Assembly (NCBI GenBank): GCA_963977445.1
Contig: CAXBPH010000190.1
Span: forward strand, 1 to 13,872
Length of the DNA stretch: 13,872 bases
Source of the DNA: an uncultured bacterium
GTDB taxonomy: Bacteria; Hydrogenedentota; Hydrogenedentia; Hydrogenedentales; JAEUWI01
Direction of reading: 5' to 3'
Within the stretch, counting starts at the first letter, position 1. Every line of letters begins with the position of its first letter. Below the pieces are notes generated by a model. The model ran no database searches, had not been told where the DNA came from, and saw only the letters and a list, made by a program, of their open reading frames with translations. Positions 88 to 10,692 of the stretch are shown here, piece after piece. A program made the translations under genes and the position numbers.

Positions 88-1545
88 ACCGGACTCCACG
101 AATCCCAGCTTTACCAGAAATCCATCGGTGTTTCCATCGGGTGCGGTCAGGTTCGCTTCGCCCACACCCGGATCAAAGTCGACTGTTAGCTCGAAAGTAC
201 CCGCCACAAATACATTGTGCGCTGCATCCACAACGATAGACTCGCCTTGGTCAAATCCCGCGCCGGGGAATTGTTTCCCCCAGACAAAATCTCCATCGAC
301 GTCAAGGCGGGACACAAAAATATCGGTAACCCCCGCCGTGGTCACATTTGCCTCGCCCGCACCGGGGTCGAGATCGATAGTCCCCTGGAAGTAGCCGGTG
401 GTGTACACACTGCCTTCCCCGCCAACAGCGATGGCAAGTCCCGTGTCGCGGCTGTTGCCGCCCAGGGAGCGAGCCCAGACATGATTCCCTGCGGAATCCA
501 ATTTTGAAATGAAGACGCTGTCGGAAAGGGAGAATATTTCGTCCGTTCCCGCGCCGGGATCAAAGTCTACGGTTCCCGAATAGAAGCCCGTGGTGTATAC
601 ATTGCCGGCGCTGTCCGCAGCAATGGCCTCGCCCTGCTCGATACCCGTGCCACCCATCTGCCGGGCCCATACGAGTTCACCATCCGAATTGAGTTTGGCG
701 GCAAAAATATCCGTCACACCAAAACTGGTCAGGAGGAATTCGCCCTCGCTGGAGTCAAAGTCCACCGTATCTTCAAAACGCCCCACGATACAGGCATTGT
801 CCATGCCATCGACCGCCAATCCGAAGCCCTCTTCCCGACCACTACCGCTAAAGGAAGTCGCCCAGGCAAAATTTCCATCGGCATCGAGCTTAAATACGAA
901 CGCATCGGCATCACCATTGCTGGTGATGTTGTTGAACTCGTCGCTGGGATCAAAATCCAACGTTCCGCGAAAATATCCCGTGCTGTAGACCGCCCCGGTA
1001 CTATCAACATCCATGCCTTCCAGATTATCGGTAAAGGAATTCCCGATAGCTCGGGCCCAGATAAAATCGCCCGATGGGTCCAGCTTTAAGACAAAAATAT
1101 CTGAACTACCCCGCCCCGGTAGTTGAGACACACCCTCCCCCGGGTCAAAGTCTACGGTACCCGTAAAGGTTCCACCCACATAGATGTTTCCGGTAGCATC
1201 CAATCTTATTTCGTTTACTTCGTCTTTTACGGTACCACCGAAGGTGCGCGACCAGACCAGTGCCCCCGTGTCATCCAGTTTCACAACGAAGATGTCGTCC
1301 GATCCGGCACTGGTAACTTCGGAAGTCCCCAAACCCGGATCCAAATCGACGGTCCCTCGGAATTGCCCCGTCACATAGGTGTTCCCATTGTCGTCCACCG
1401 CCACCCCAAATGCCTGGTTGTCTTCGGCCCCGCTGAAGGCCGCCGCATAATCCAGCGCGACATCCTGCGCCGTCGTGGCCCCCGGGAAGAGCGATACTCC
1501 CAGCAACAAAAACAAAACACCGCTACTTTTTTGAATCATACCCAT
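1..1545 (-). CDS. Secreted seven-bladed beta-propeller (SBBP-repeat-like) surface protein with (GE)n linker; 3' end truncated by the window edge
   Basis: Hand-translated, 515 codons with no stop (likely why the ORF track omits it). AGGAG lies 6 nt before ATG 1545. The N-terminus is signal-peptide-like (MGMIQKSSGVLFLLLGVSLFPGATTAQ). Seven ~60-aa repeats resemble A-V-D-x-x-G-N-x-Y-x-T-G-x-F-x-G-T-V-D-F-D-P-G...D-I-F-V-x-K-L-D-x-x-G-x-x-x-W, with cores DLDPG, DFDPG, DFDPS, DFDSS, DFDPG, DLDPG, DFDPG. These are followed by GEGEGE. Confidence 0.92.
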   Translation of the reverse strand, partial: MGMIQKSSGVLFLLLGVSLFPGATTAQDVALDYAAAFSGAEDNQAFGVAVDDNGNTYVTGQFRGTVDLDPGLGTSEVTSAGSDDIFVVKLDDTGALVWSRTFGGTVKDEVNEIRLDATGNIYVGGTFTGTVDFDPGEGVSQLPGRGSSDIFVLKLDPSGDFIWARAIGNSFTDNLEGMDVDSTGAVYSTGYFRGTLDFDPSDEFNNITSNGDADAFVFKLDADGNFAWATSFSGSGREEGFGLAVDGMDNACIVGRFEDTVDFDSSEGEFLLTSFGVTDIFAAKLNSDGELVWARQMGGTGIEQGEAIAADSAGNVYTTGFYSGTVDFDPGAGTDEIFSLSDSVFISKLDSAGNHVWARSLGGNSRDTGLAIAVGGEGSVYTTGYFQGTIDLDPGAGEANVTTAGVTDIFVSRLDVDGDFVWGKQFPGAGFDQGESIVVDAAHNVFVAGTFELTVDFDPGVGEANLTAPDGNTDGFLVKLGFVESGGEGEGEGEGEGEGEGEGEGEGEGKVKVQV

Positions 1546-1733
1546 GAATAGCTCCTGAAAATGTTCTCAGCGACGCGTGATGCGGCCGCGCACAAGTCAG
1601 AATCGAAACACCCATAAAAATCACGTGCATATCCTGAGATACCCATGAATCCTATACGAGCTACCCGGTGTCATACAAATGCGTTATAGAAAGGTGTGTC
1701 GATGGGACGATAGCGTTCAACTTCTCCCGCGCC

Positions 1734-2813
1734 TCACTGCCCTCCTTCGAGCAATTTATTGTCCAACACGGCTGCAGCCAGCGTTTCACCCACCAATCGA
1801 TTACCCGCCGGTGTATAGTGAAAGGCGGAACGGCGCCACACCAGTAGTTCATCCAGGTGTTTGTTGAACGCCTCGGCCGGGCAACAGACGGGCATACCGC
1901 TGCCTATTATCTCGGGCCATTCGGAAATACCCGGACGATAGCCACCGGCTTCACTGCCTTGGGGAATATCCAAGAGCAAAAAGGTGGCCCCCGATGCCGT
2001 AGCTTCGCGACGAATCTCGGTCAACAGCGCAATCGTCAGCTTTTCCGCATTGGTTCGGGGCTTGGACGACGCAGTCTCTGGCGTGGGCGATGGTTCTGTG
2101 GCTGGTTCCGGGGGGCCGCCGCGGTAAGTTACCATCATTCCTTGCACAAGTCGGGATGCCGTATCTCGTCCAAAGACATACAGATGGGATGAAGAGGATA
2201 CCCACCGATAGAGTGCGTAACTGTTCAATTTCTCCCTGACCTTGACCGAAGGCAAGTAGGTCTTGTTTGCGGGCTCTAATACACCCTCCTTAAGTCGAAA
2301 CAAGTTGGACCGAACATTGTCACTTATATCGGTAATATGCCAGGCAACAACGACGAGGTCGGGATCATATTTCAGGCCTTCCGCCCGCAATGCGAGGAGC
2401 TCTTCGGCGTTTCCGTGTCCCGATACACCCAGATTGATTACACGGCATGGCTGATCATTCTCCTTCAGAATTGATGCCATTTGCGCATGAAAGGTCTGGT
2501 CAAGCTTGGCGCCATAGCCCATCGTAAAGGAATCACCCAAAAAGACAACCCGCTTTTCACCGGCAGGTTTTTCATAGGGTATTTCTTCATCGCTTCGAAT
2601 GCCCCGAGAGTTGATATTAAACTCGACGCGGTAGTCAGGCGTTTTGTGCACATAGTGGGCGTTGGGCGAGTTGCCCCGGATGCCGTAATCCGTAGCGCTC
2701 ACATAACGTGGCATGAGCGGCAACGGAGAAAAGACCCGTATGTACACCTCGGCTGCGATGACCACGTAGACGGCCACCAACAAGACTCGAATCACTTTCT
2801 TTACAATATTCAT
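1734..2813 (-). CDS. Membrane-anchored SGNH/GDSL-fold protein, likely acyl-transfer partner of the MBOAT (AlgX/PatB-like role)
   Basis: 359 aa with an N-terminal TM anchor. Motifs: INSRGIRS, block I VVFLGDSFTMG, block II VINLGVSGHG, YDPDLVVV, and C-terminal FHYTPAGNRLVG. It starts 22 nt after the MBOAT stop. Confidence 0.88.
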   Translation of the reverse strand: MNIVKKVIRVLLVAVYVVIAAEVYIRVFSPLPLMPRYVSATDYGIRGNSPNAHYVHKTPDYRVEFNINSRGIRSDEEIPYEKPAGEKRVVFLGDSFTMGYGAKLDQTFHAQMASILKENDQPCRVINLGVSGHGNAEELLALRAEGLKYDPDLVVVAWHITDISDNVRSNLFRLKEGVLEPANKTYLPSVKVREKLNSYALYRWVSSSSHLYVFGRDTASRLVQGMMVTYRGGPPEPATEPSPTPETASSKPRTNAEKLTIALLTEIRREATASGATFLLLDIPQGSEAGGYRPGISEWPEIIGSGMPVCCPAEAFNKHLDELLVWRRSAFHYTPAGNRLVGETLAAAVLDNKLLEGGQ

Positions 2814-2835
2814 GGATTATGTTCTCTGGAACAGG

Positions 2836-4506
2836 TCAAAATGCGAAGTAGATGAACTCAATCGTCTCGGTATTCCGGAGCAGCAGGATGGACAAGATGA
2901 TAAATATCCAGACATTCAAACGAACAAACCAGTGCCAGCGCGCCATTGGATTCAAGGTGCCGGTGTACCATTGAATAATCTGAAAGAGTATCAGGAACCA
3001 ACCATAGAACAGGAAGTCTTGTGCAAGCTCAATGGTATGGGCATCCCATCCGAAATTCAGGAAAATGGACTGTAGAAAGAGCCCGATGGTCGTCACGTTT
3101 CTGGCACGAAAAATCAGCCATCCGATGCACACAAACTGAAACATGACCAACCCTTTGGCAAGGGTCAGCCAGTACGGAGCCTTAACCAGTTCCTTGGGCG
3201 CACTGAAAAACCGATAGACCACGAGGAGGGCACCTTGGTAGGCACCCCACAAGACGAAGGTCCACGCGGCTCCGTGCCAGAGCCCGCCCAGGAGCATGGT
3301 CAACATCAGGTTAACGTAGGTGCGCCGTGGTCCTTTGCGATTCCCGCCCAGCGGCACATAGAGGTAATCGCGCAGCCAACTCGAAAGACTGATGTGCCAA
3401 CGTTGCCAGAATGCCGAAGGGGACGTGGAAAAGTAGGGCAAATTGAAGTTGAGCATTAAATCAAAGCCCATCAGCCGGGCTGTACCACGGGCGATATCGG
3501 AATAGCCGGAAAAGTCCGCATATATCTGGAAAGCGAAAGCATATACGGCGATCAGACAGGTGAGGCCGTCCGCGGGCACCGCCGTGGTTGTAAGGGTATC
3601 GTAGGGTTGAAAAACGCTATTGACGATCGTTGCCATATTGTCGGCAACCACCATCTTCTTGAACAGACCCCAACCAATCAGCCACATTCCGGAGCGCCAG
3701 TCTTCCCAGGAGGCACTACGGGAACGGGTGAATTGGGGTAGCAAGTGTTTGCCCCGTTCAATGGGGCCTGCGACCAGTTGGGGAAAGAACGCGACGTAGG
3801 TGGCGAAATCGAGTAGTGAATCACTCGAATCCATTTCCTTCCGATAAACATCAATGGTGTAGCTCATCGTCTGGAAGGTGTAAAAGGAGATACCGACAGG
3901 CAGGATGACTTCCAATGTCCACGGCGTAGGCGCGGTGTGAAACAGGGTCTGGAAAATATCAGACATACCCTCGGCAAAGAAATTGAAATATTTGAAGAAG
4001 CCGAGTATCCCCAAATTGGCCACCACACTGACGGTGACAAGAAACTTTCTGCGAAAGGCTTCGGGCAATGCCGCGATGCGCCCGTGAAACAGGCACGCCA
4101 ATAGTGCGGCAACAGACGTCCCCACCAATACCTGCCATTTAGCCCAGGTCAGGGGCACCAGGGCCGCCCAGTCCACATCGCAGACAAGGTGGAGCCCTTC
4201 GTTATAAATGGTTATCTTGTCCCACTGCACGGTCAATAAGAAGAAGGCCGACAAGACGGCAGCGGCGGCAACCGATATTCGTTCCCGTTGTGTCATCGAA
4301 CCGCGATCAATCATCCTCGCTGTGGAATAATCGATACAGGTTGAGATCACGATGAGATAGAGAAAGCGATAATCCCACCAACCGTAGAACACGTAACTCA
4401 TTGCGAGCAGCATCGTATTCTGATGTTTGTAGGAACGAGCGAGCCCACGATATAGGCCCATCACGATCAAAAAGTATATAGCAAATGTCAGACTATTGAA
4501 TATCAT
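2836..4506 (-). CDS. MBOAT-family O-acyltransferase, AlgI/PatA/WssH-type
   Basis: 556 aa. Motifs: MIFNS start, SYVFYGWWD, NLGILGFFKYFNFF, LPVGISFYTFQTMSYTIDVYR, FFPQLVAGPIER, QIYADFSGYSDIA, FWQRWHISLSSWLRDYLYVPLGG, catalytic His in GGLWHGAAWTF, and C-terminal FIYFAF. Confidence 0.97.
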   Translation of the reverse strand: MIFNSLTFAIYFLIVMGLYRGLARSYKHQNTMLLAMSYVFYGWWDYRFLYLIVISTCIDYSTARMIDRGSMTQRERISVAAAAVLSAFFLLTVQWDKITIYNEGLHLVCDVDWAALVPLTWAKWQVLVGTSVAALLACLFHGRIAALPEAFRRKFLVTVSVVANLGILGFFKYFNFFAEGMSDIFQTLFHTAPTPWTLEVILPVGISFYTFQTMSYTIDVYRKEMDSSDSLLDFATYVAFFPQLVAGPIERGKHLLPQFTRSRSASWEDWRSGMWLIGWGLFKKMVVADNMATIVNSVFQPYDTLTTTAVPADGLTCLIAVYAFAFQIYADFSGYSDIARGTARLMGFDLMLNFNLPYFSTSPSAFWQRWHISLSSWLRDYLYVPLGGNRKGPRRTYVNLMLTMLLGGLWHGAAWTFVLWGAYQGALLVVYRFFSAPKELVKAPYWLTLAKGLVMFQFVCIGWLIFRARNVTTIGLFLQSIFLNFGWDAHTIELAQDFLFYGWFLILFQIIQWYTGTLNPMARWHWFVRLNVWIFIILSILLLRNTETIEFIYFAF

Positions 4507-5281
4507 CGCTTCCCCGTAGATGCTCGTCGAGCAGTAAACGCAGCTGGGGTGTTACAAAGTTTGCGAGCGAATCATAACCCGCCCGATTCAAATGAAGATC
4601 GTCCAGGGCATAGGCAGACTTCATGCGTCCACCTTCACCAAGCACGTCATCGCAATCTACGTAGAAGACCGCCTCCCCCGACAGGGACCCCAGCCATTGG
4701 TTTAGCTCCGTCACTGCCGTTAGCGTACGATCGGACCACACGGGACGGCGGCTTAGGGGTACGTCACCAACGGGAAAGATTGACAGGAGAACGACCGTGC
4801 ATTCGGCGCTCTCAAGTCGGCGGACGATTTCCTGAAGGTTACGCTTACATTCCTGAATGATGTCGTCGCCCCGGTCAGGAAAAAGGCCAATGGACTTCAA
4901 ATCATTGATTCCCAGTTGGATAACGACCATGTTGGGATTCAAGTCCAGCACTTCCCGATCCAAACGTAATAACGCTTGCGCGGTCGTCTCGCCACCTGCG
5001 CCCCGGTTGACCGCCTGGAAATCCTGGTGATCCTCAAGCCCCGCCCACATTTCGATACGGGAGTCGCCAAAGAAAACAACGCGTTTTTGGCCGTCTGGGG
5101 CATCGCTCAACGACTTCAGGTTCCGTGCAAACAGGCCTGTTTTCGTGGGGTCCAGTTGAAGCTGTTGGCGCTCCTTATAGGAGCCTATTGCCTGCCGGAA
5201 CAGGACCAGGTTGAGAACTGCACTTATGGCCAACCCGGTAAGGAGAATAAAGACCAGGCCCATACACCATATCTTTTTCAC
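4493..5281 (-). CDS. Membrane-anchored SGNH/GDSL esterase or acyltransferase
   Basis: 262 aa, GTG start, N-terminal hydrophobic helix. All four SGNH blocks are intact: FFGDS, NRGAGG, QLGIND, DDLHLN. It overlaps the MBOAT start by 14 nt. Confidence 0.93.
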   Translation of the reverse strand: MKKIWCMGLVFILLTGLAISAVLNLVLFRQAIGSYKERQQLQLDPTKTGLFARNLKSLSDAPDGQKRVVFFGDSRIEMWAGLEDHQDFQAVNRGAGGETTAQALLRLDREVLDLNPNMVVIQLGINDLKSIGLFPDRGDDIIQECKRNLQEIVRRLESAECTVVLLSIFPVGDVPLSRRPVWSDRTLTAVTELNQWLGSLSGEAVFYVDCDDVLGEGGRMKSAYALDDLHLNRAGYDSLANFVTPQLRLLLDEHLRGSDDIQ

Positions 5282-5730: not shown

Positions 5731-5825
5731 CATCTATACCCGGTTCCTACTCAATTTCACGGGACTATAAAGACCTTCACCTATCACTCAATCCACTAGA
5801 TGACACGTTCACGGCAAAAAGTACG

Positions 5826-6914
5826 CTACCCCTTCCTCCCCATCGCCCCCTTCATTTTCCCCAGCAACTGGGAACCCGCAGGCATGCTCCCCAGGACCAA
5901 CAGCACGATATCGTCGAGATACCCGATGGGCCCGAACACGCCTTCGGGCAGGAGGTCGTAGGGCATGAGAAAGTAGGCACCTGCGAGCAGCAGGATGATG
6001 TAACCCGCAAGGTTGCTGAGCATCTCGATGATATGGGCTACCGGTTGGGGCAGGTAACTCTGTTCCAGCAGGGCGGTTGCGTAGACTTTCCCCGTATCCC
6101 GGCTGTATTCCAGGAGGCCCGCGTCGGCCAGGGCGTTGAGCTCCCGGGTCACGTGGGGTGGGGTCGCGCCATCGATATTGCGGCCTCCGATATAAAATAG
6201 CACCTCCCGATCGGTCAGCGGACGCTGGCGCACTTCCAGGAGCATTTCGCGCAGGGCCGGTCGGAGGTGGAGCCGTTCTTCGACACCCCGGGGCAAATAA
6301 AGTGTCTCCCGCCAAAGGAGCATGAATCCGGAAAACCACAGGAGATAGGCGGTGATCAGTCCAAGGTCCCAGGGGTAAAGTCCATAGAGGAGGGGCAGGC
6401 TGATAAACAACAGGAAGCCCTTGTAGGATTTGTAGGCGAAGGAGGTAACCAGAACGAATGCACAGAAGAGGTACATGGGGCTGGCGCTTATCGTGGCAGC
6501 CCCGTCTCCGGCAGCCTTGCTGAGGAGGGCGATCACTTCGCCCTGGAGCGATTGGTAGAGCCGCGCGAGGGGCCAGTCCCCCTGGTTTCCGAGAACGTGG
6601 GTAAGGCCCATCAGTGCCGTCACAAAAATAACAAAGGCCGATATAACCGCAGGTATTTCGTAGAAGGACCCCAAACGCGGACGGAGCAGGAAAAGAAAGG
6701 CCACGGTAATCAACGTGAGGACGGTGGCCGGCACGACGTGGGCATGGTGCACCCAGATGCCTGATCGAAGAATGAGTTGGGAGATGGCAGAAATCATGAG
6801 GAGCCAACCGACCATATTGGTCGTCCATTCGAAGCGATGCTCGGCGACGAGTGAGGGCTCCGGGCCGTGCATCGGGCTGGAGCCGGGAAGGCTATGGGTT
6901 TTGCCTGCACTCAT
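5826..6914 (-). CDS. Polytopic membrane protein with an internal winged-helix-like domain and C-terminal DUF1232 (YkvA-like) domain
   Basis: 362 aa with about six N-terminal hydrophobic segments. The soluble segment LREMLLEVRQRPLTDREVLFY...VTRELNALADAGLLEYSRDTGKVYAT has a wHTH pattern. The C-terminal AYFLMPYDLLPEGVFGPIGYLDDIVLL matches the DUF1232 signature YxxxPxDLIPD...GxxDD. ATGA overlap with the upstream gene. Confidence 0.8.
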   Translation of the reverse strand: MSAGKTHSLPGSSPMHGPEPSLVAEHRFEWTTNMVGWLLMISAISQLILRSGIWVHHAHVVPATVLTLITVAFLFLLRPRLGSFYEIPAVISAFVIFVTALMGLTHVLGNQGDWPLARLYQSLQGEVIALLSKAAGDGAATISASPMYLFCAFVLVTSFAYKSYKGFLLFISLPLLYGLYPWDLGLITAYLLWFSGFMLLWRETLYLPRGVEERLHLRPALREMLLEVRQRPLTDREVLFYIGGRNIDGATPPHVTRELNALADAGLLEYSRDTGKVYATALLEQSYLPQPVAHIIEMLSNLAGYIILLLAGAYFLMPYDLLPEGVFGPIGYLDDIVLLVLGSMPAGSQLLGKMKGAMGRKG

Positions 6915-7426
6915 GGCAAATACTCGGAAATCTTCTTATTGCGCGCAAAGGTCTCGTCGAGGGTCGTAAGGCGAACGTGGAGATGGTCCTGCAGGATACC
7001 GCATTGAATGGAATCTACAATAAGGCTCTTGTCCGTGTTGCCCAGCGGATATTTTTGTCCGGTAATGAGTTCCCACGCCTTGGTGTAGGAGGCATAGGCC
7101 CCTTGGAGCTTGTCGTTGTCGTTTATCCAGCTGTAGCCCTCTTCATAGAGTTGGTCGCCATGGGTGCGGAGCTGTTCCGCCGCCTTTATCTTGTCTTCCA
7201 CCGACATTTCGTGTTTTACCATGGTGGCCTCGGGCGTCGGGGCCGCCGGATCGGGGGCGAGGAAAGCGAATATGTTGATAACCAGCGCGATGGCGGCCAG
7301 CAACAGGGGCGCGAGATAGCGTTTCACACCACTATCGGCATGGGTGGCCGGGGCAGGCTCCGACGGGCGCTGTGGCAAGACATCGCCTACGGCCGTCTGG
7401 GGATCTCGGGGTTGGATTTCATTCAT
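6911..7426 (-). CDS. Hypothetical single-pass membrane protein with a helical, TPR-like C-terminal domain
   Basis: Start moved from the track's 7456 to ATG 7426, which has AAGGAG 9 nt upstream; 171 aa. TM segment YLAPLLLAAIALVINIFAFLA, a Pro/Ala linker, then AEQLRTHGDQLYEEG...LQGAYASYTKAWEL. The stop overlaps the next ATG (6911-6914). Confidence 0.8.
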   Translation of the reverse strand: MNEIQPRDPQTAVGDVLPQRPSEPAPATHADSGVKRYLAPLLLAAIALVINIFAFLAPDPAAPTPEATMVKHEMSVEDKIKAAEQLRTHGDQLYEEGYSWINDNDKLQGAYASYTKAWELITGQKYPLGNTDKSLIVDSIQCGILQDHLHVRLTTLDETFARNKKISEYLP

Positions 7427-7454
7427 GAAGTGCCACTCCTTAGCTAGGCTTCCC

Positions 7455-7484
7455 ATTGTAACGCGATGCAGGGTGCATTGTGAA
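7455..7484 (-). promoter_or_regulatory. Putative sigma70 promoter TTCACA-N18-TACAAT for the 7426/6914 operon
   Basis: Both hexamers match consensus at 5/6. It lies just upstream of the AAGGAG RBS. The spacer contains the palindrome ATGCA-N3-TGCAT (7466-7478). Confidence 0.6.
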
Positions 7485-7631: not shown

Positions 7632-8918
7632 ATGAACAATCTCATCTGGTTCATAGCGGGTGGTATCGCCCTGGCAGCGGCTTTTCTGTTACAAAGCCCC
7701 TATATGGCCTTTGCGGTCTATACCTTCCTGCTACTCGTGGGGCTGGCCCACTTTTCGTCGCTGGCCTGGCTCTCGGGGTTGGACTGCACCCGCACCATCT
7801 CCACCGACACCATCCTCCAGGGCGAGGAAGTGACCGTCAAGGTGGTGGTGGAGAATAAACGGGGCTGGCCCATCCCGTGGATATTCATCGAAGACTACCA
7901 CCCCAAGGACTTTCCCCGGGTCGGACAGAATAAGATGTTGGCCTTCATCATGCCGGGCCACTCGGTGACCCTGGAGTACCGACTGCGCTGTCCCCGTCGG
8001 GGCTACCACCGCATCGGGCCCCTGCTCATGGAATCGGGCGACCTCTTTGGTCTCCAGCGCCGTTTCCGCACCGGCGTCACGCAGGACTACGTGTCTGTGC
8101 TGCCCACCGTCGCCTACATCGACACCTTTAACGTGGCCACGAAGCGCCCACACGGTCCCGTGCGCCTTTCCAACCGCATCTACACCGACCCCACCCGCAT
8201 CAACAGCATCCGCGAATATGTGCCCGGTGATCCGCTGAACTCAATTCATTGGAAAGCAACGGCCCGGACGGGTACGCTCCATGTGAAAACCTATGAGCCT
8301 TCGAGCGTCATCGGCGGCACCCTCATTCTCGATCTCCATGAGAACAGCTACAAGCCGGATCGCAAAGAGGAACGAATCGAGTTGGCCATCACCACCACCG
8401 CCTCCATCGCCTATCTCCTCCAGATGTCGGGCGAACAAGTCGGCATGATTACCAATGCCCGGGACGCCGCCGAGGTGGCCGAATATGATGTTGCCCGTCG
8501 GGAGACCCTGAGCCGCCAGGAAGTCGATGCGGAAGTCGATGGGGTGCTGGTCTCCACCACCATCAGTCCCCTTTGCGTAGAAACGGCCCGCAGTCCTTTT
8601 CAGATACAGCGCATCACCCAGAATCTGGCCCGCGTGTTGCCCACCGATGGACTGGATGGGCTGGGACTCGTCCTCAGCCAATATCACATGCTGCCCCGCG
8701 ACGCCACCCTCATGCTCGTAGCTCCCATTATTACCGAGCGCATGGCCCACGCCCTGGGCGCCATTAAACTCTCCGGATTCAACATTACGGTATTTTTAAT
8801 CCAGGACCAACGCGCTTTCGAGGAAGCGGCCCTTTTCCTGGCGCCCCATTACATTCACGTCTTTCACATCGAACACGAGCGCAGTTTACATGAGATTTCC
8901 CCCGCTAGAATCGGGTAG
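7632..8918 (+). CDS. DUF58 domain protein (MoxR-associated, VWA-like) with an N-terminal TM hairpin
   Basis: Start moved from the track's 7344 to ATG 7632; 428 aa. Two N-terminal TMs, then RRGYHRIGPL, GDLFGL, the DUF58 signature IREYVPGDPLNSIHWKATAR, LILD and ELAITTTASIA. Confidence 0.92.
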   Translation: MNNLIWFIAGGIALAAAFLLQSPYMAFAVYTFLLLVGLAHFSSLAWLSGLDCTRTISTDTILQGEEVTVKVVVENKRGWPIPWIFIEDYHPKDFPRVGQNKMLAFIMPGHSVTLEYRLRCPRRGYHRIGPLLMESGDLFGLQRRFRTGVTQDYVSVLPTVAYIDTFNVATKRPHGPVRLSNRIYTDPTRINSIREYVPGDPLNSIHWKATARTGTLHVKTYEPSSVIGGTLILDLHENSYKPDRKEERIELAITTTASIAYLLQMSGEQVGMITNARDAAEVAEYDVARRETLSRQEVDAEVDGVLVSTTISPLCVETARSPFQIQRITQNLARVLPTDGLDGLGLVLSQYHMLPRDATLMLVAPIITERMAHALGAIKLSGFNITVFLIQDQRAFEEAALFLAPHYIHVFHIEHERSLHEISPARIG

Positions 8919-10692
8919 GCGACGACCGGCCCTGGCCAGCACGGATTTTCATTCCCTGCTGAATTCGCCTGCCCCCGACGTTCTTGACCCCGATGAAGAT
9001 ATTCGGGCGGACGGTACCGACTACCGCTCGCTGGTCCATCGTGATCGGGTGCCCGCCGAACGGGTGCCGCCCAAGACCCTGGCCGATGCCCTGATTGATA
9101 TTTTTACCCCCCTGCTCATTTTTGTGATGGTCTATACCGTCATATTTTTTCTGTTGGATGTGCGCTACATCTACACCGCCGTCAACGACGGACCACTCCG
9201 TTTCGTGGCGCTCTTTTTTGTGGTGGGGGTAGTGGCCTGCAACCGTATTTTCGCCCGGGACAGCTCTCCCGACTCCCTGCTGCTGCCCATCGTCTTTGCC
9301 GGGGCCGTCGGTCTGTATACCCTTTCGTCGTCGACTTTTTATGACAACAGTGGCTCCTTTGCCCGTAATTTCATGAATGACGCGCCCCTCCTCGCCACAG
9401 GATTTAACATGGCCGTAATCGCCCTCATCTGGTGGGTGGTCAATCGCCTGACCCACGAGTGCTGTGTGGATGAAAACAAGACGGCCGGAGACGAAGGCAT
9501 TCTCACGGGAACGGCGCGCAAATTCCAGATGGCGATGCGCCCCAACAAGGCCACTACGGCCATTGACCATCTCTATGAGAATGATTCCCACGCAGCCTTC
9601 GCGTCGGCACAGGGCAAGGAAATGATGCCCATGAACGTGCTGGAGGCCTTCGACCCCACCGAAGGCTACAAGCCGAAGAAGAAACCCGTCCCCAAGTACA
9701 ATATCGACCGATCCCAGCGACTGTCCAAACGACACCCCGGCATTTCCATCCTCTACTTTTCCATACCCGTGATGGCCCTCTTTACCCTGGGCATTCGGGT
9801 CGTCCAACAGGGCGGCGAAAGCTGGGTGGCCGCCGGTCACTTTTACGCCGGCATCTATACGGTCGCGACCCTCATGCTCCTGCTGCTCACCAGTCTTGGC
9901 GGGCTGCGCCAGTATTTTCGCGCCCGCATGATTTCCATGCCGGCCTTCATGGGCTATTTCTGGTTGGGCCTCGGCATAATCATGATTGCCATGGTTATGC
10001 TGGCCGCGACCCAAATCGTGAAGCCCGACCTGCCGCCCATGGCTATCGTGGAGGAACATGAGGCGGATGCATGGGTTCGGGGCAGCACGTTCCAATTGGC
10101 TTCGACGGCAGCACGGCCCATGGAACTTCTGGAGCAGTCCCTGTTCATGGAGCGCCTGGGCCAGGTGGTCCTGGGGATTTTTGCCCTCTTCGCCCTCTAT
10201 GGGCTGCTCAAACTGGCCGCGACCGGTGCCGCCTGGATGGCCCGACAACGCCATCGTTTTCCCGGTTTCGTGGTCCGCTTTTTCGACAGACTGGAGCGCT
10301 TCCTCTCCCTCATCACCAACGTGCCCAGCCTGCCTCACTTCCGATGGTCCTCTCGGATTGACCGGAGCATTGCCACGTGCACGCCCTATTCGAACTCGCT
10401 CGGTGAGACGGACTCCGGCAAGACCCTGCCCGACCACGTCACCTATGCCTACGACGCCCTCTGTGCCCTGGCCTACGACATTGGCGTTCCTCGGGAGACG
10501 GGGCAAACGCCCTTCGAATTCATTGACGCCTTCCCCCGGCCCCTTCGCCATTTGAAGAAACAGGCCCGGGAATTGACCCAACTCTATGTGCAGGCCGCCT
10601 ACTCGGGGACGCCGCTGGATCCGGCAGCCGAAAATAGGGTACGCCATTTCTGGATAGCCTATGAACGTGCACGCCGACGGGTTCTACGTTAA
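8890..10692 (+). CDS. Polytopic membrane protein with C-terminal DUF4129 domain; exact start uncertain
   Basis: Up to 600 aa with about eight hydrophobic segments. The C-terminus AYDALCALAYDIGVPRETGQTPFEF...ARELTQLYVQAAYS matches the DUF4129 pattern. It overlaps or abuts the DUF58 gene, its usual partner. Confidence 0.85.
   Translation: MRFPPLESGRRRPALASTDFHSLLNSPAPDVLDPDEDIRADGTDYRSLVHRDRVPAERVPPKTLADALIDIFTPLLIFVMVYTVIFFLLDVRYIYTAVNDGPLRFVALFFVVGVVACNRIFARDSSPDSLLLPIVFAGAVGLYTLSSSTFYDNSGSFARNFMNDAPLLATGFNMAVIALIWWVVNRLTHECCVDENKTAGDEGILTGTARKFQMAMRPNKATTAIDHLYENDSHAAFASAQGKEMMPMNVLEAFDPTEGYKPKKKPVPKYNIDRSQRLSKRHPGISILYFSIPVMALFTLGIRVVQQGGESWVAAGHFYAGIYTVATLMLLLLTSLGGLRQYFRARMISMPAFMGYFWLGLGIIMIAMVMLAATQIVKPDLPPMAIVEEHEADAWVRGSTFQLASTAARPMELLEQSLFMERLGQVVLGIFALFALYGLLKLAATGAAWMARQRHRFPGFVVRFFDRLERFLSLITNVPSLPHFRWSSRIDRSIATCTPYSNSLGETDSGKTLPDHVTYAYDALCALAYDIGVPRETGQTPFEFIDAFPRPLRHLKKQARELTQLYVQAAYSGTPLDPAAENRVRHFWIAYERARRRVLR

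Follow-up and report, generated by a model that had tools for sequence, protein, structure and literature searches.

Does a winged helix that is held in the membrane from both sides and encoded together with a single-pass partner read DNA, or does it serve as a scaffold? This question is raised by two overlapping genes in a stretch of 13,872 nucleotides from an uncultured bacterium of the Hydrogenedentota (the window, in the following, is this whole stretch). The parts of the two proteins are known folds; their combination we have not found described. A preliminary description of the DNA likewise did not recognise the architecture, and the literature searched, with most subscription papers outside our reach, contains no description of that of gene 2. 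The lead reading at that time was a membrane-integrated regulator, the alternative a non-DNA-binding winged-helix scaffold. The data presented here weaken the former, and the latter fits better. For the pair, a scaffold role is more likely than a regulatory one.

The features of the locus are collected in Table 1. Both reading frames are open, and the stop codon of gene 1 overlaps the start codon of gene 2 in an ATGA at 6911-6914 (TCAT on the plus strand), which confirms the supposed two-gene operon. A promoter candidate of its own is also present as described, and a ribosome-binding-site-like sequence follows it. Upstream of gene 1 four sigma-70-like sites were counted compared with 1.5 +/- 1.2 in shuffled sequences, and in five of nine upstream regions a TACAAT/TATAAT hexamer lies 27-29 nt ahead of the start. 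In the related loci L128, L015 and L016 long runs of 7-9-nt tandem repeats are found around the promoter region of gene 1. A 339-aa open frame which covers gene 2 in another frame (5809-6828, minus strand) was discarded as a shadow frame; it has 4-8 stops in three relatives. No homology of gene 1 and gene 2 to each other was found.

Table 1. Coordinates of the features of the two-gene locus in the window.
Feature	Residues	Position	Strand	Remarks
Gene 2	1-362	5826-6914	minus	362-aa open frame: six TM, winged helix, DUF1232
N-terminal domain of gene 2	31-200	6315-6824	minus	six predicted TM helices, amphipathic outer loop ~109-145
Winged helix of gene 2	206-290	6045-6299	minus	shaped like ArsR/HxlR/MarR domains, core constrained, predicted to be cytoplasmic
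HTH turn and first half of recognition helix	243-258	6141-6188	minus	hypervariable in sequence and length
DUF1232/YkvA hairpin of gene 2	306-341	5892-5999	minus	Pfam PF06803, E 3.8e-8, conserved acidic loop
Gene 1	1-171	6911-7426	minus	171-aa open frame, bitopic partner
Pro-rich inner tail of gene 1		7355-7393	minus	short conserved motif P18, R20, P24
Single TM helix of gene 1	38-56	7259-7315	minus	basic residues ahead, predicted N-in, C-out
Three-helix bundle of gene 1	76-169	6920-7201	minus	one TPR-like repeat and a long helix; MIT/TPR-like
AAGGAG, ribosome-binding-site-like		7436-7441	minus	9 nt 5' of gene 1 ATG
Sigma-70-like promoter candidate		7455-7484	minus	TTCACA-18-TACAAT, 10/12 match

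The AlphaFold2 model of gene 2 (26-row alignment, mean pLDDT 70.7, pTM 0.62) has helices of transmembrane length at residues 20-51, 57-77 and 87-109, then an amphipathic stretch and short helices at 146-161, 164-177 and 184-200; the C-terminal helices comprise residues 290-316 and 330-358. Averaged hydropathy resolves six plus two hydrophobic segments, and the multi-TM N-terminus noted earlier is made up of six predicted helices. Topology was assigned by the positive-inside rule. Loop 78-88 has a K/R count of 2.2, loop 162-165 one of 1.2 and the C-terminal tail one of 3.4, compared with 0.1 in loop 181-184 and 0.0 in loop 318-335, in which D/E amount to 4.0. For loops 50-59 (K/R 1.1) and 109-145 (1.7, spread over 37 residues) the assignment by charge is less certain. 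From this charge bias eight membrane crossings are predicted, which puts the N-terminus, the C-terminus and the winged helix on the inner side. The claim that the winged helix is anchored on both sides holds in this prediction, six helices preceding and two following it.

The six-TM domain contains no invariant D, E, H, K or R, and an enzymatic role was therefore rejected. Relatives of this domain outside of the gene 2 family were not detected. In three same-genus comparisons the six-TM domain has a pN/pS of 0.16 and the C-terminal part one of 0.17. The latter contains the DUF1232 named in the preliminary description, at 33.4 bits against a Pfam gathering cut-off of 23, with D320, E324, D334 and D335 of its acidic loop conserved; NCBIfam returned no match for either gene. 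Stand-alone YkvA/DUF1232 proteins share this hairpin with its PxD-hh-P-D/E...G-h-x-DD loop. They differ in that most matches in the phylum, where DUF1232 occurs in 57 of 135 genomes, are short open frames without the other gene 2 domains. In the host genome gene 2 is the sole DUF1232 copy. The accessible parts of three reports mention YkvA/DUF1232 without a mechanism (PMC13631088; bioRxiv 2023.11.02.564894; bioRxiv 2023.09.22.558817), and in the main text of a fourth neither name occurs (PMC11237479).

What is the domain between the membrane segments? In the model, helices 209-214, 219-230, 235-242 and 253-264 are followed by strands 268-271 and 276-279, i.e., a three-helix core and then a beta-hairpin wing, with a pLDDT of 76-85 outside the loop. 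Residues 206-300 of the model were searched against 48,161 chains, and the best 50 rows of each search were considered. Nearly all of these are winged helices, with Z scores of 7-8.2 over ~65-88 residues, among them N4 RNA polymerase (7.9), ArsR 3f6o (7.7), Csa3 (7.7) and MarR (7.5), and in a second search YodB (8.2). Each individual Z score is middling; the support derives from the fold shared across nearly all of the best 50 rows. Thus, the ArsR/MarR-like domain of the preliminary description stands as a winged-helix fold; its size does not, being ~85 aa instead of ~65.

No Foldseek match for gene 2 was obtained at E < 0.001, PDB sequence searches gave nothing under E 0.4, no HTH family exceeded its Pfam cut-off in the gene 2 protein (P0001) or in 20 relatives, and none was found in NCBIfam for P0001. 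Below the cut-off there are faint hints of HTH_Crp_2 (E 0.015), Csa3 (E 0.02) and phrog_2440 (E 0.021). These hints are to regulator HTHs only, and the nearest folds among the best 50 rows are DNA-binding regulators, not ESCRT-II; both points argue against a scaffold. ESCRT-II chains are absent from the best 50 rows of either search, to which unlisted families may have to be added.

Across 11 genomes pairwise identity at residues 245-257 is 0.0-0.3, below the whole-protein mean of 0.59. In LexA and HrcA of these 11 genomes the recognition helix hardly varies and exceeds the respective whole-protein means of 0.79 and 0.70, in contrast to that of gene 2, which differs even inside one genus. The three same-genus comparisons yield a pN/pS of 0.11 for residues 201-242, 0.55 for 243-258 and 0.09 for 259-290; the value of 0.55 is based on 16 codons in three pairs, a point which weighs against the scaffold. 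The spacing from helix 2 to L259 varies from 9 to 27 residues in 26 rows, mostly 16-18, and is 11 in LexA by the same count. At every position of 243-258 the frequency of K/R is at most 0.29. Conserved are R222, E227, R229 and R231 on the face of helix 1, E269 and Y270 in the wing and the basic K276. Net charge was dropped as an argument against DNA binding: the domain is not separated from the LexA and HrcA domains, which are likewise near zero.

Since core, helix-1 face and wing are constrained, the winged helix is, as judged from these alignments, not decaying; its base-reading surface appears to be free. It looks like a regulator-type fold under strong selection after loss of the DNA-reading surface. 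Among the orthologues the recognition helix is not conserved and the turn is not short, and no ArsR/MarR/HxlR profile scores above its curated cut-off. By these two properties gene 2 does not belong with the ArsR/MarR regulators. The upstream regions conform to this. No 8-mer, with one mismatch allowed, is common to seven of the nine, and no palindrome is common among them, though operators may lie at distant targets. A scaffold is favored, then, because residues 245-257 are variable where LexA and HrcA are near-invariant, because pN/pS at 243-258 exceeds that of the rest of the winged helix, because the turn varies in length and the basic residues are conserved outside of 243-258, and because the upstream regions have no operator in common. 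Variable helix and turn, set against the LexA and HrcA controls, and the lack of a common operator are the reasons why the regulator proposed at first has lost ground.

As a regulator, the pair would be a transmembrane transcription factor plus its co-component, comparable to ToxR/ToxS. The outer bundle of gene 1 would sense a signal and the dimerised winged helix would bind an operator, either via the wing and helix 1 or via a fast-evolving recognition helix which tracks its targets. We regard this as the main rival reading, though as less probable than not. Four observations speak for it: the ArsR alignment runs through the helix leading into TM7 (model 208-300 on 3f6o 7-95, Z 7.7), R222, R229, R231 and K276 are conserved basic residues, the bitopic periplasmic partner is translationally coupled in a way reminiscent of co-component cassettes (bioRxiv 2022.04.08.487670, as far as accessible), and DUF1232 is used together with DNA-binding-type domains elsewhere. 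With ToxR/ToxS, TcpP/TcpH and VtrA/VtrC the pair shares an overlapping, translationally coupled two-gene cassette on one strand, a cytoplasmic winged helix on a membrane protein and a bitopic partner with an outer domain. In the accessible part of that work, however, the definition of co-component systems requires that the HTH is N-terminal, that there is one TM and that the partner resembles lipocalins (Kinch et al., bioRxiv 2022.04.08.487670). ToxRS-type regulators have an N-terminal CadC-like HTH, a single TM, a periplasmic domain of their own and the lipocalin-like partner downstream, whereas the ArsR-shaped domain of gene 2 is internal, between six and two TM segments, and its helical partner is upstream. 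Of the defining properties only the coupled cassette is found; N-terminal HTH with single TM and lipocalin-like partner are not. The pair is not a member of the ToxRS family. The recognition helix varying within one genus, the long HTH turn of varying length, the lack of a site common to the upstream regions and of target genes conserved beside the pair across families further speak against a regulator, as does the fact that gene 2 is almost devoid of a periplasmic input domain of its own and that gene 1 is helical.

Two premises of the preliminary description have to be corrected in this context. Membrane regulators are not confined to a single TM; in the accessible part of a survey 17% have two TM regions and 27% have more (Demey et al. 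2023, PMC10269533). Moreover, fusions of DUF1232 to an HTH are already on record: supplement file 2 of this survey lists 68 DUF1232 proteins, 62 with HTH_3 and six with HTH_26 (PMC10269533), which counts against the scaffold. In these, as in gene 2, an HTH-type domain is followed by a C-terminal DUF1232. They differ in that the HTH is XRE-type, the length is 177-294 aa and one or two TM are present in 68/68 rows; a six-TM domain or a winged helix does not occur in these rows (PMC10269533). A 'Hydrogenedent' entry is missing from the table, which requires a predicted, Pfam-based DNA-binding domain and makes this a weak absence. By the definition used there gene 2 has at least one TM region and a DNA-binding-type fold which does not reach the Pfam cut-off.

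The conserved basic residues outside the recognition helix would also suit a tether which holds DNA or RNA at the membrane by a basic helix-1/wing face irrespective of sequence. Polymerase and helicase chains contain winged helices which are not regulators, and these score as well as the regulators do (6dt7 Z 7.9, 2va8 Z 6.7). Yet a patchy presence in 11 of 135 genomes fits chromosome housekeeping badly and the outer partner is left unexplained, so that we regard a tether as quite unlikely.

Gene 1 was modeled from a 30-row alignment with a pLDDT of 87-98 over residues 81-170. Because basic residues precede its TM and acidic residues follow, it is predicted to be oriented N-in, C-out. Both prolines of the motif in the tail are kept in four of five divergent rows. 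The outer part is all-helical, with helices 76-97, 104-122 and 140-169, and has invariant A83, D91, G97, Y114, W118, T122 and R152. The partner had been described as single-pass and TPR-like. The first property is borne out, the second in part: there is one repeat-like motif, no tandem repeat and a long third helix, and none of 30 members matches a Pfam TPR model (gene 1 has no Pfam match at all, and no Foldseek match at E < 0.001). G90, G97, A110, Y114 and A117 presumably correspond to a single TPR repeat into which a loop is inserted.

MIT domains match the bundle as well as TPR domains do: Atg1 (Z 9.9), Vps4 (9.4), Spartin (9.4), calpain-7 (9.2) and CdvC (8.8), compared with up to 9.9 for designed bundles and 8.0-8.8 for TPR domains, among them Thermotoga TM1634 at 8.2. 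The MIT geometry (Z 8.7-9.9) is thus level with TPR and designed bundles, and helical bundles below Z 13 may just represent a common arrangement, a caveat of the search tool. The MIT match, at Z of at most 9.9 within the chance range of helical bundles, therefore counts against the scaffold. The likeness to the MIT domains of Vps4, Spartin, CdvC and Atg1 and to TM1634 consists in a three-helix bundle (Z 8.2-9.9, rmsd 1.4-3.6); TM1634 is moreover a three-helix TPR anchor and the soluble domain of a membrane protein. Gene 1 differs from these in lacking a sequence match, in its predicted position outside the cytoplasm and in that no AAA+ ATPase or ESCRT-III gene adjoins it. That its bundle is predicted on the side opposite to the winged helix is a further point against a scaffold. 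Complex prediction for the two products gave a score of 0.01 against a mark of 0.32, uninformative either way.

Are the two proteins partners? A word-index search with gene 2 retrieved 33 proteins of 34-100% identity, each of which has DUF1232, and a search with gene 1 likewise 33; 19 of 20 gene 2 relatives scanned pass the Pfam cut-off for DUF1232. A profile of gene 2 residues 25-290, with DUF1232 left out, matched 12 of 1.84 billion representatives, all with identical layout if long enough. The family comprises 12 clusters at 50% identity, mostly from one poorly studied lineage. One 482-aa relative (P0010) carries a 23S_rRNA_IVP four-helix domain in front, possibly by read-through of an inserted gene. 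Matches from the Atlas (gene 2: 0.82 and 0.79 to DUF1232 clusters of 395 and 388 aa, mostly Thermodesulfobacteriota; gene 1: up to 0.83, TPR rows 0.78-0.79) are leads only, as the profile search did not recover them as relatives.

Of 135 genomes of the phylum, the 11 with gene 2 are also the 11 with gene 1, and the gene order does not change, as expected of the dedicated partner claimed earlier. Carriers are nine of the 14 other genomes of the host family, together with one other family. In 10 of the 11 both are on one contig with gene 1 upstream; in G001 both are near contig ends. Among the divergent proteins P0027-P0034 and P0067-P0073 the check for a partner covers a minority, and as the carriers are mostly kin, the independent cases of co-inheritance number ~3. 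G002 is the only genome of the same genus from which the pair is missing; the DUF58 gene next to it is missing as well and the contig stops at this place, so that the absence is probably an assembly gap. Insertions of 0.4-1.6 kb separate the genes in G004, G005 and G008. In L013 an insert begins at the ATGA. The inserts in L005, L004 and L006/L129 are unrelated and we take them to be a PIN-like ORF, a 0.4-kb element and a transposase-like ORF. The pair is adjacent in one of 35 genomes of another phylum (G135) and also in the two metagenome loci of full length; among the 80 loci listed in the metagenome scan, 78 match the C-terminal part of gene 2 only.

In G052 the pair resides in an AT-rich island (GC 0.35-0.44, GC3 0.35-0.38; flanks 0.61-0.65), and its protein falls outside the host-family clade. 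Island and clade placement suggest that both genes moved together. On this island (L124, G052:C135, ~1000-3900) the partner has an N-terminus which is ~60 aa longer and appears helical at its start; the partner is preceded by a small ORF which presumably resembles DUF2283. The joint occurrence in 11 of 135 genomes and in the G052 island counts in favor of the two-subunit scaffold. The patchy distribution of two genes which are always together and the AT-rich island would also be expected of a mobile anti-phage or stress-triggered membrane system. We consider this very unlikely: a PADLOC scan of 10 proteins, neighbours left out, returned one HTH match (E 0.02) and nothing else, there is no plasmid match, no defence gene was recognised among the neighbours, and in 8/11 carriers the position beside DUF58/DUF4129 genes is stable.

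DUF58 and DUF4129 genes are the usual partners of MoxR ATPases. In the window they lie divergently at 7632-10692 (plus strand), with no moxR alongside. A link of the pair to them was rejected: the DUF4129 gene is present in 105 of the 135 genomes of the phylum, and the DUF58 gene of G004 and G052 is not located beside the pair. In G004 (L127, G004:C1, 1-8500) the pair follows shortly after what we take to be a mur/mraY-like cell-wall cluster. In the window, on the other side of the pair at 1734-5281 (minus), lies an SGNH/GDSL - MBOAT - SGNH/GDSL cluster of slightly lower GC, which presumably resembles polysaccharide O-acetylation systems. It is unmatched in related loci and was therefore probably inserted downstream of the pair. 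At the contig end (1-1545, minus) an SBBP beta-propeller protein with a Gly-Glu repeat is encoded, a relative of which follows the pair in two related loci.

According to the accessible part of PMC10936438, wH genes often adjoin pspA. For a link of the pair to pspA, co-presence is uninformative: PspA is found in 12/12 carriers and in 6/8 non-carriers. The host pspA is on a different contig, in a psp-type cluster (G000:C188 1811-6792) which presumably also contains a pspF-like and two pspC-like genes. Nor is the pair accompanied by a gene for a ligand or an effector, which, like the uninformative PspA, counts against the scaffold.

Taken together, we propose, with a probability of roughly one half, that the pair constitutes an inner-membrane scaffold of two subunits, in which the cytoplasmic winged helix would bind protein or lipid, by analogy with VIA1 and ESCRT-II. 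A precedent which favors this is VIA1 (CPLD50) of cyanobacteria and plastids, in which, as described in the accessible passages, membrane-embedded winged helices bind the ESCRT-III-like protein VIPP1, not DNA (PMC13505992). VIA1 is the closest working analogy for gene 2; it differs in that it has two winged helices and is predicted to have three TM helices, the likeness being put forward as an analogy, and the accessible passages do not mention DUF1232 or a bitopic partner (PMC13505992).

The two products would form one complex, a scaffold or adaptor across the inner membrane, with the subunits packed via their TM segments. Outside, the MIT/TPR-like bundle of gene 1 and the acidic DUF1232 loop may bind a periplasmic peptide or ligand. 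Inside, where charge bias also places the Pro-rich tail of gene 1, the winged helix may derive from an ArsR/HxlR-type regulator domain which no longer reads DNA sequence, and would present a conserved face, made up of helix 1 and the wing, to an anionic lipid or a protein of the cytoplasm. Such a protein could be gene 1 itself, via its tail, or a factor of membrane repair or quality control. The likeliest role of the pair would be envelope upkeep. A bolder version, which we consider unlikely, is a horizontally mobile bacterial two-subunit adaptor in which a disarmed regulator-type winged helix, used as in ESCRT-II or VIA1, and an MIT-like bundle, joined via DUF1232, recruit PspA (ESCRT-III) or an AAA+ protein for membrane repair.

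A cytoplasmic domain between N- and C-terminal TM segments is also a property of the eukaryotic RING-TM-DUF1232 ligases, which differ in their RING domain, absent from gene 2. The two C-terminal TM segments of RNF170 we take to be DUF1232. RNF170 has three TM segments, two of them C-terminal (PMC6803694, in part), and RING+TM+DUF1232 proteins are listed in the accessible part of PMC8169666. Were the adaptor version true, DUF1232 would acquire a first role, that of a membrane docking element, and this role would be common to the eukaryotic ligases. The pair is a candidate for an independent route to a membrane adaptor of the VIA1/ESCRT-II kind. With 530 residues it is small enough for expression in E. 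coli and so would offer a direct handle on the widespread DUF1232.
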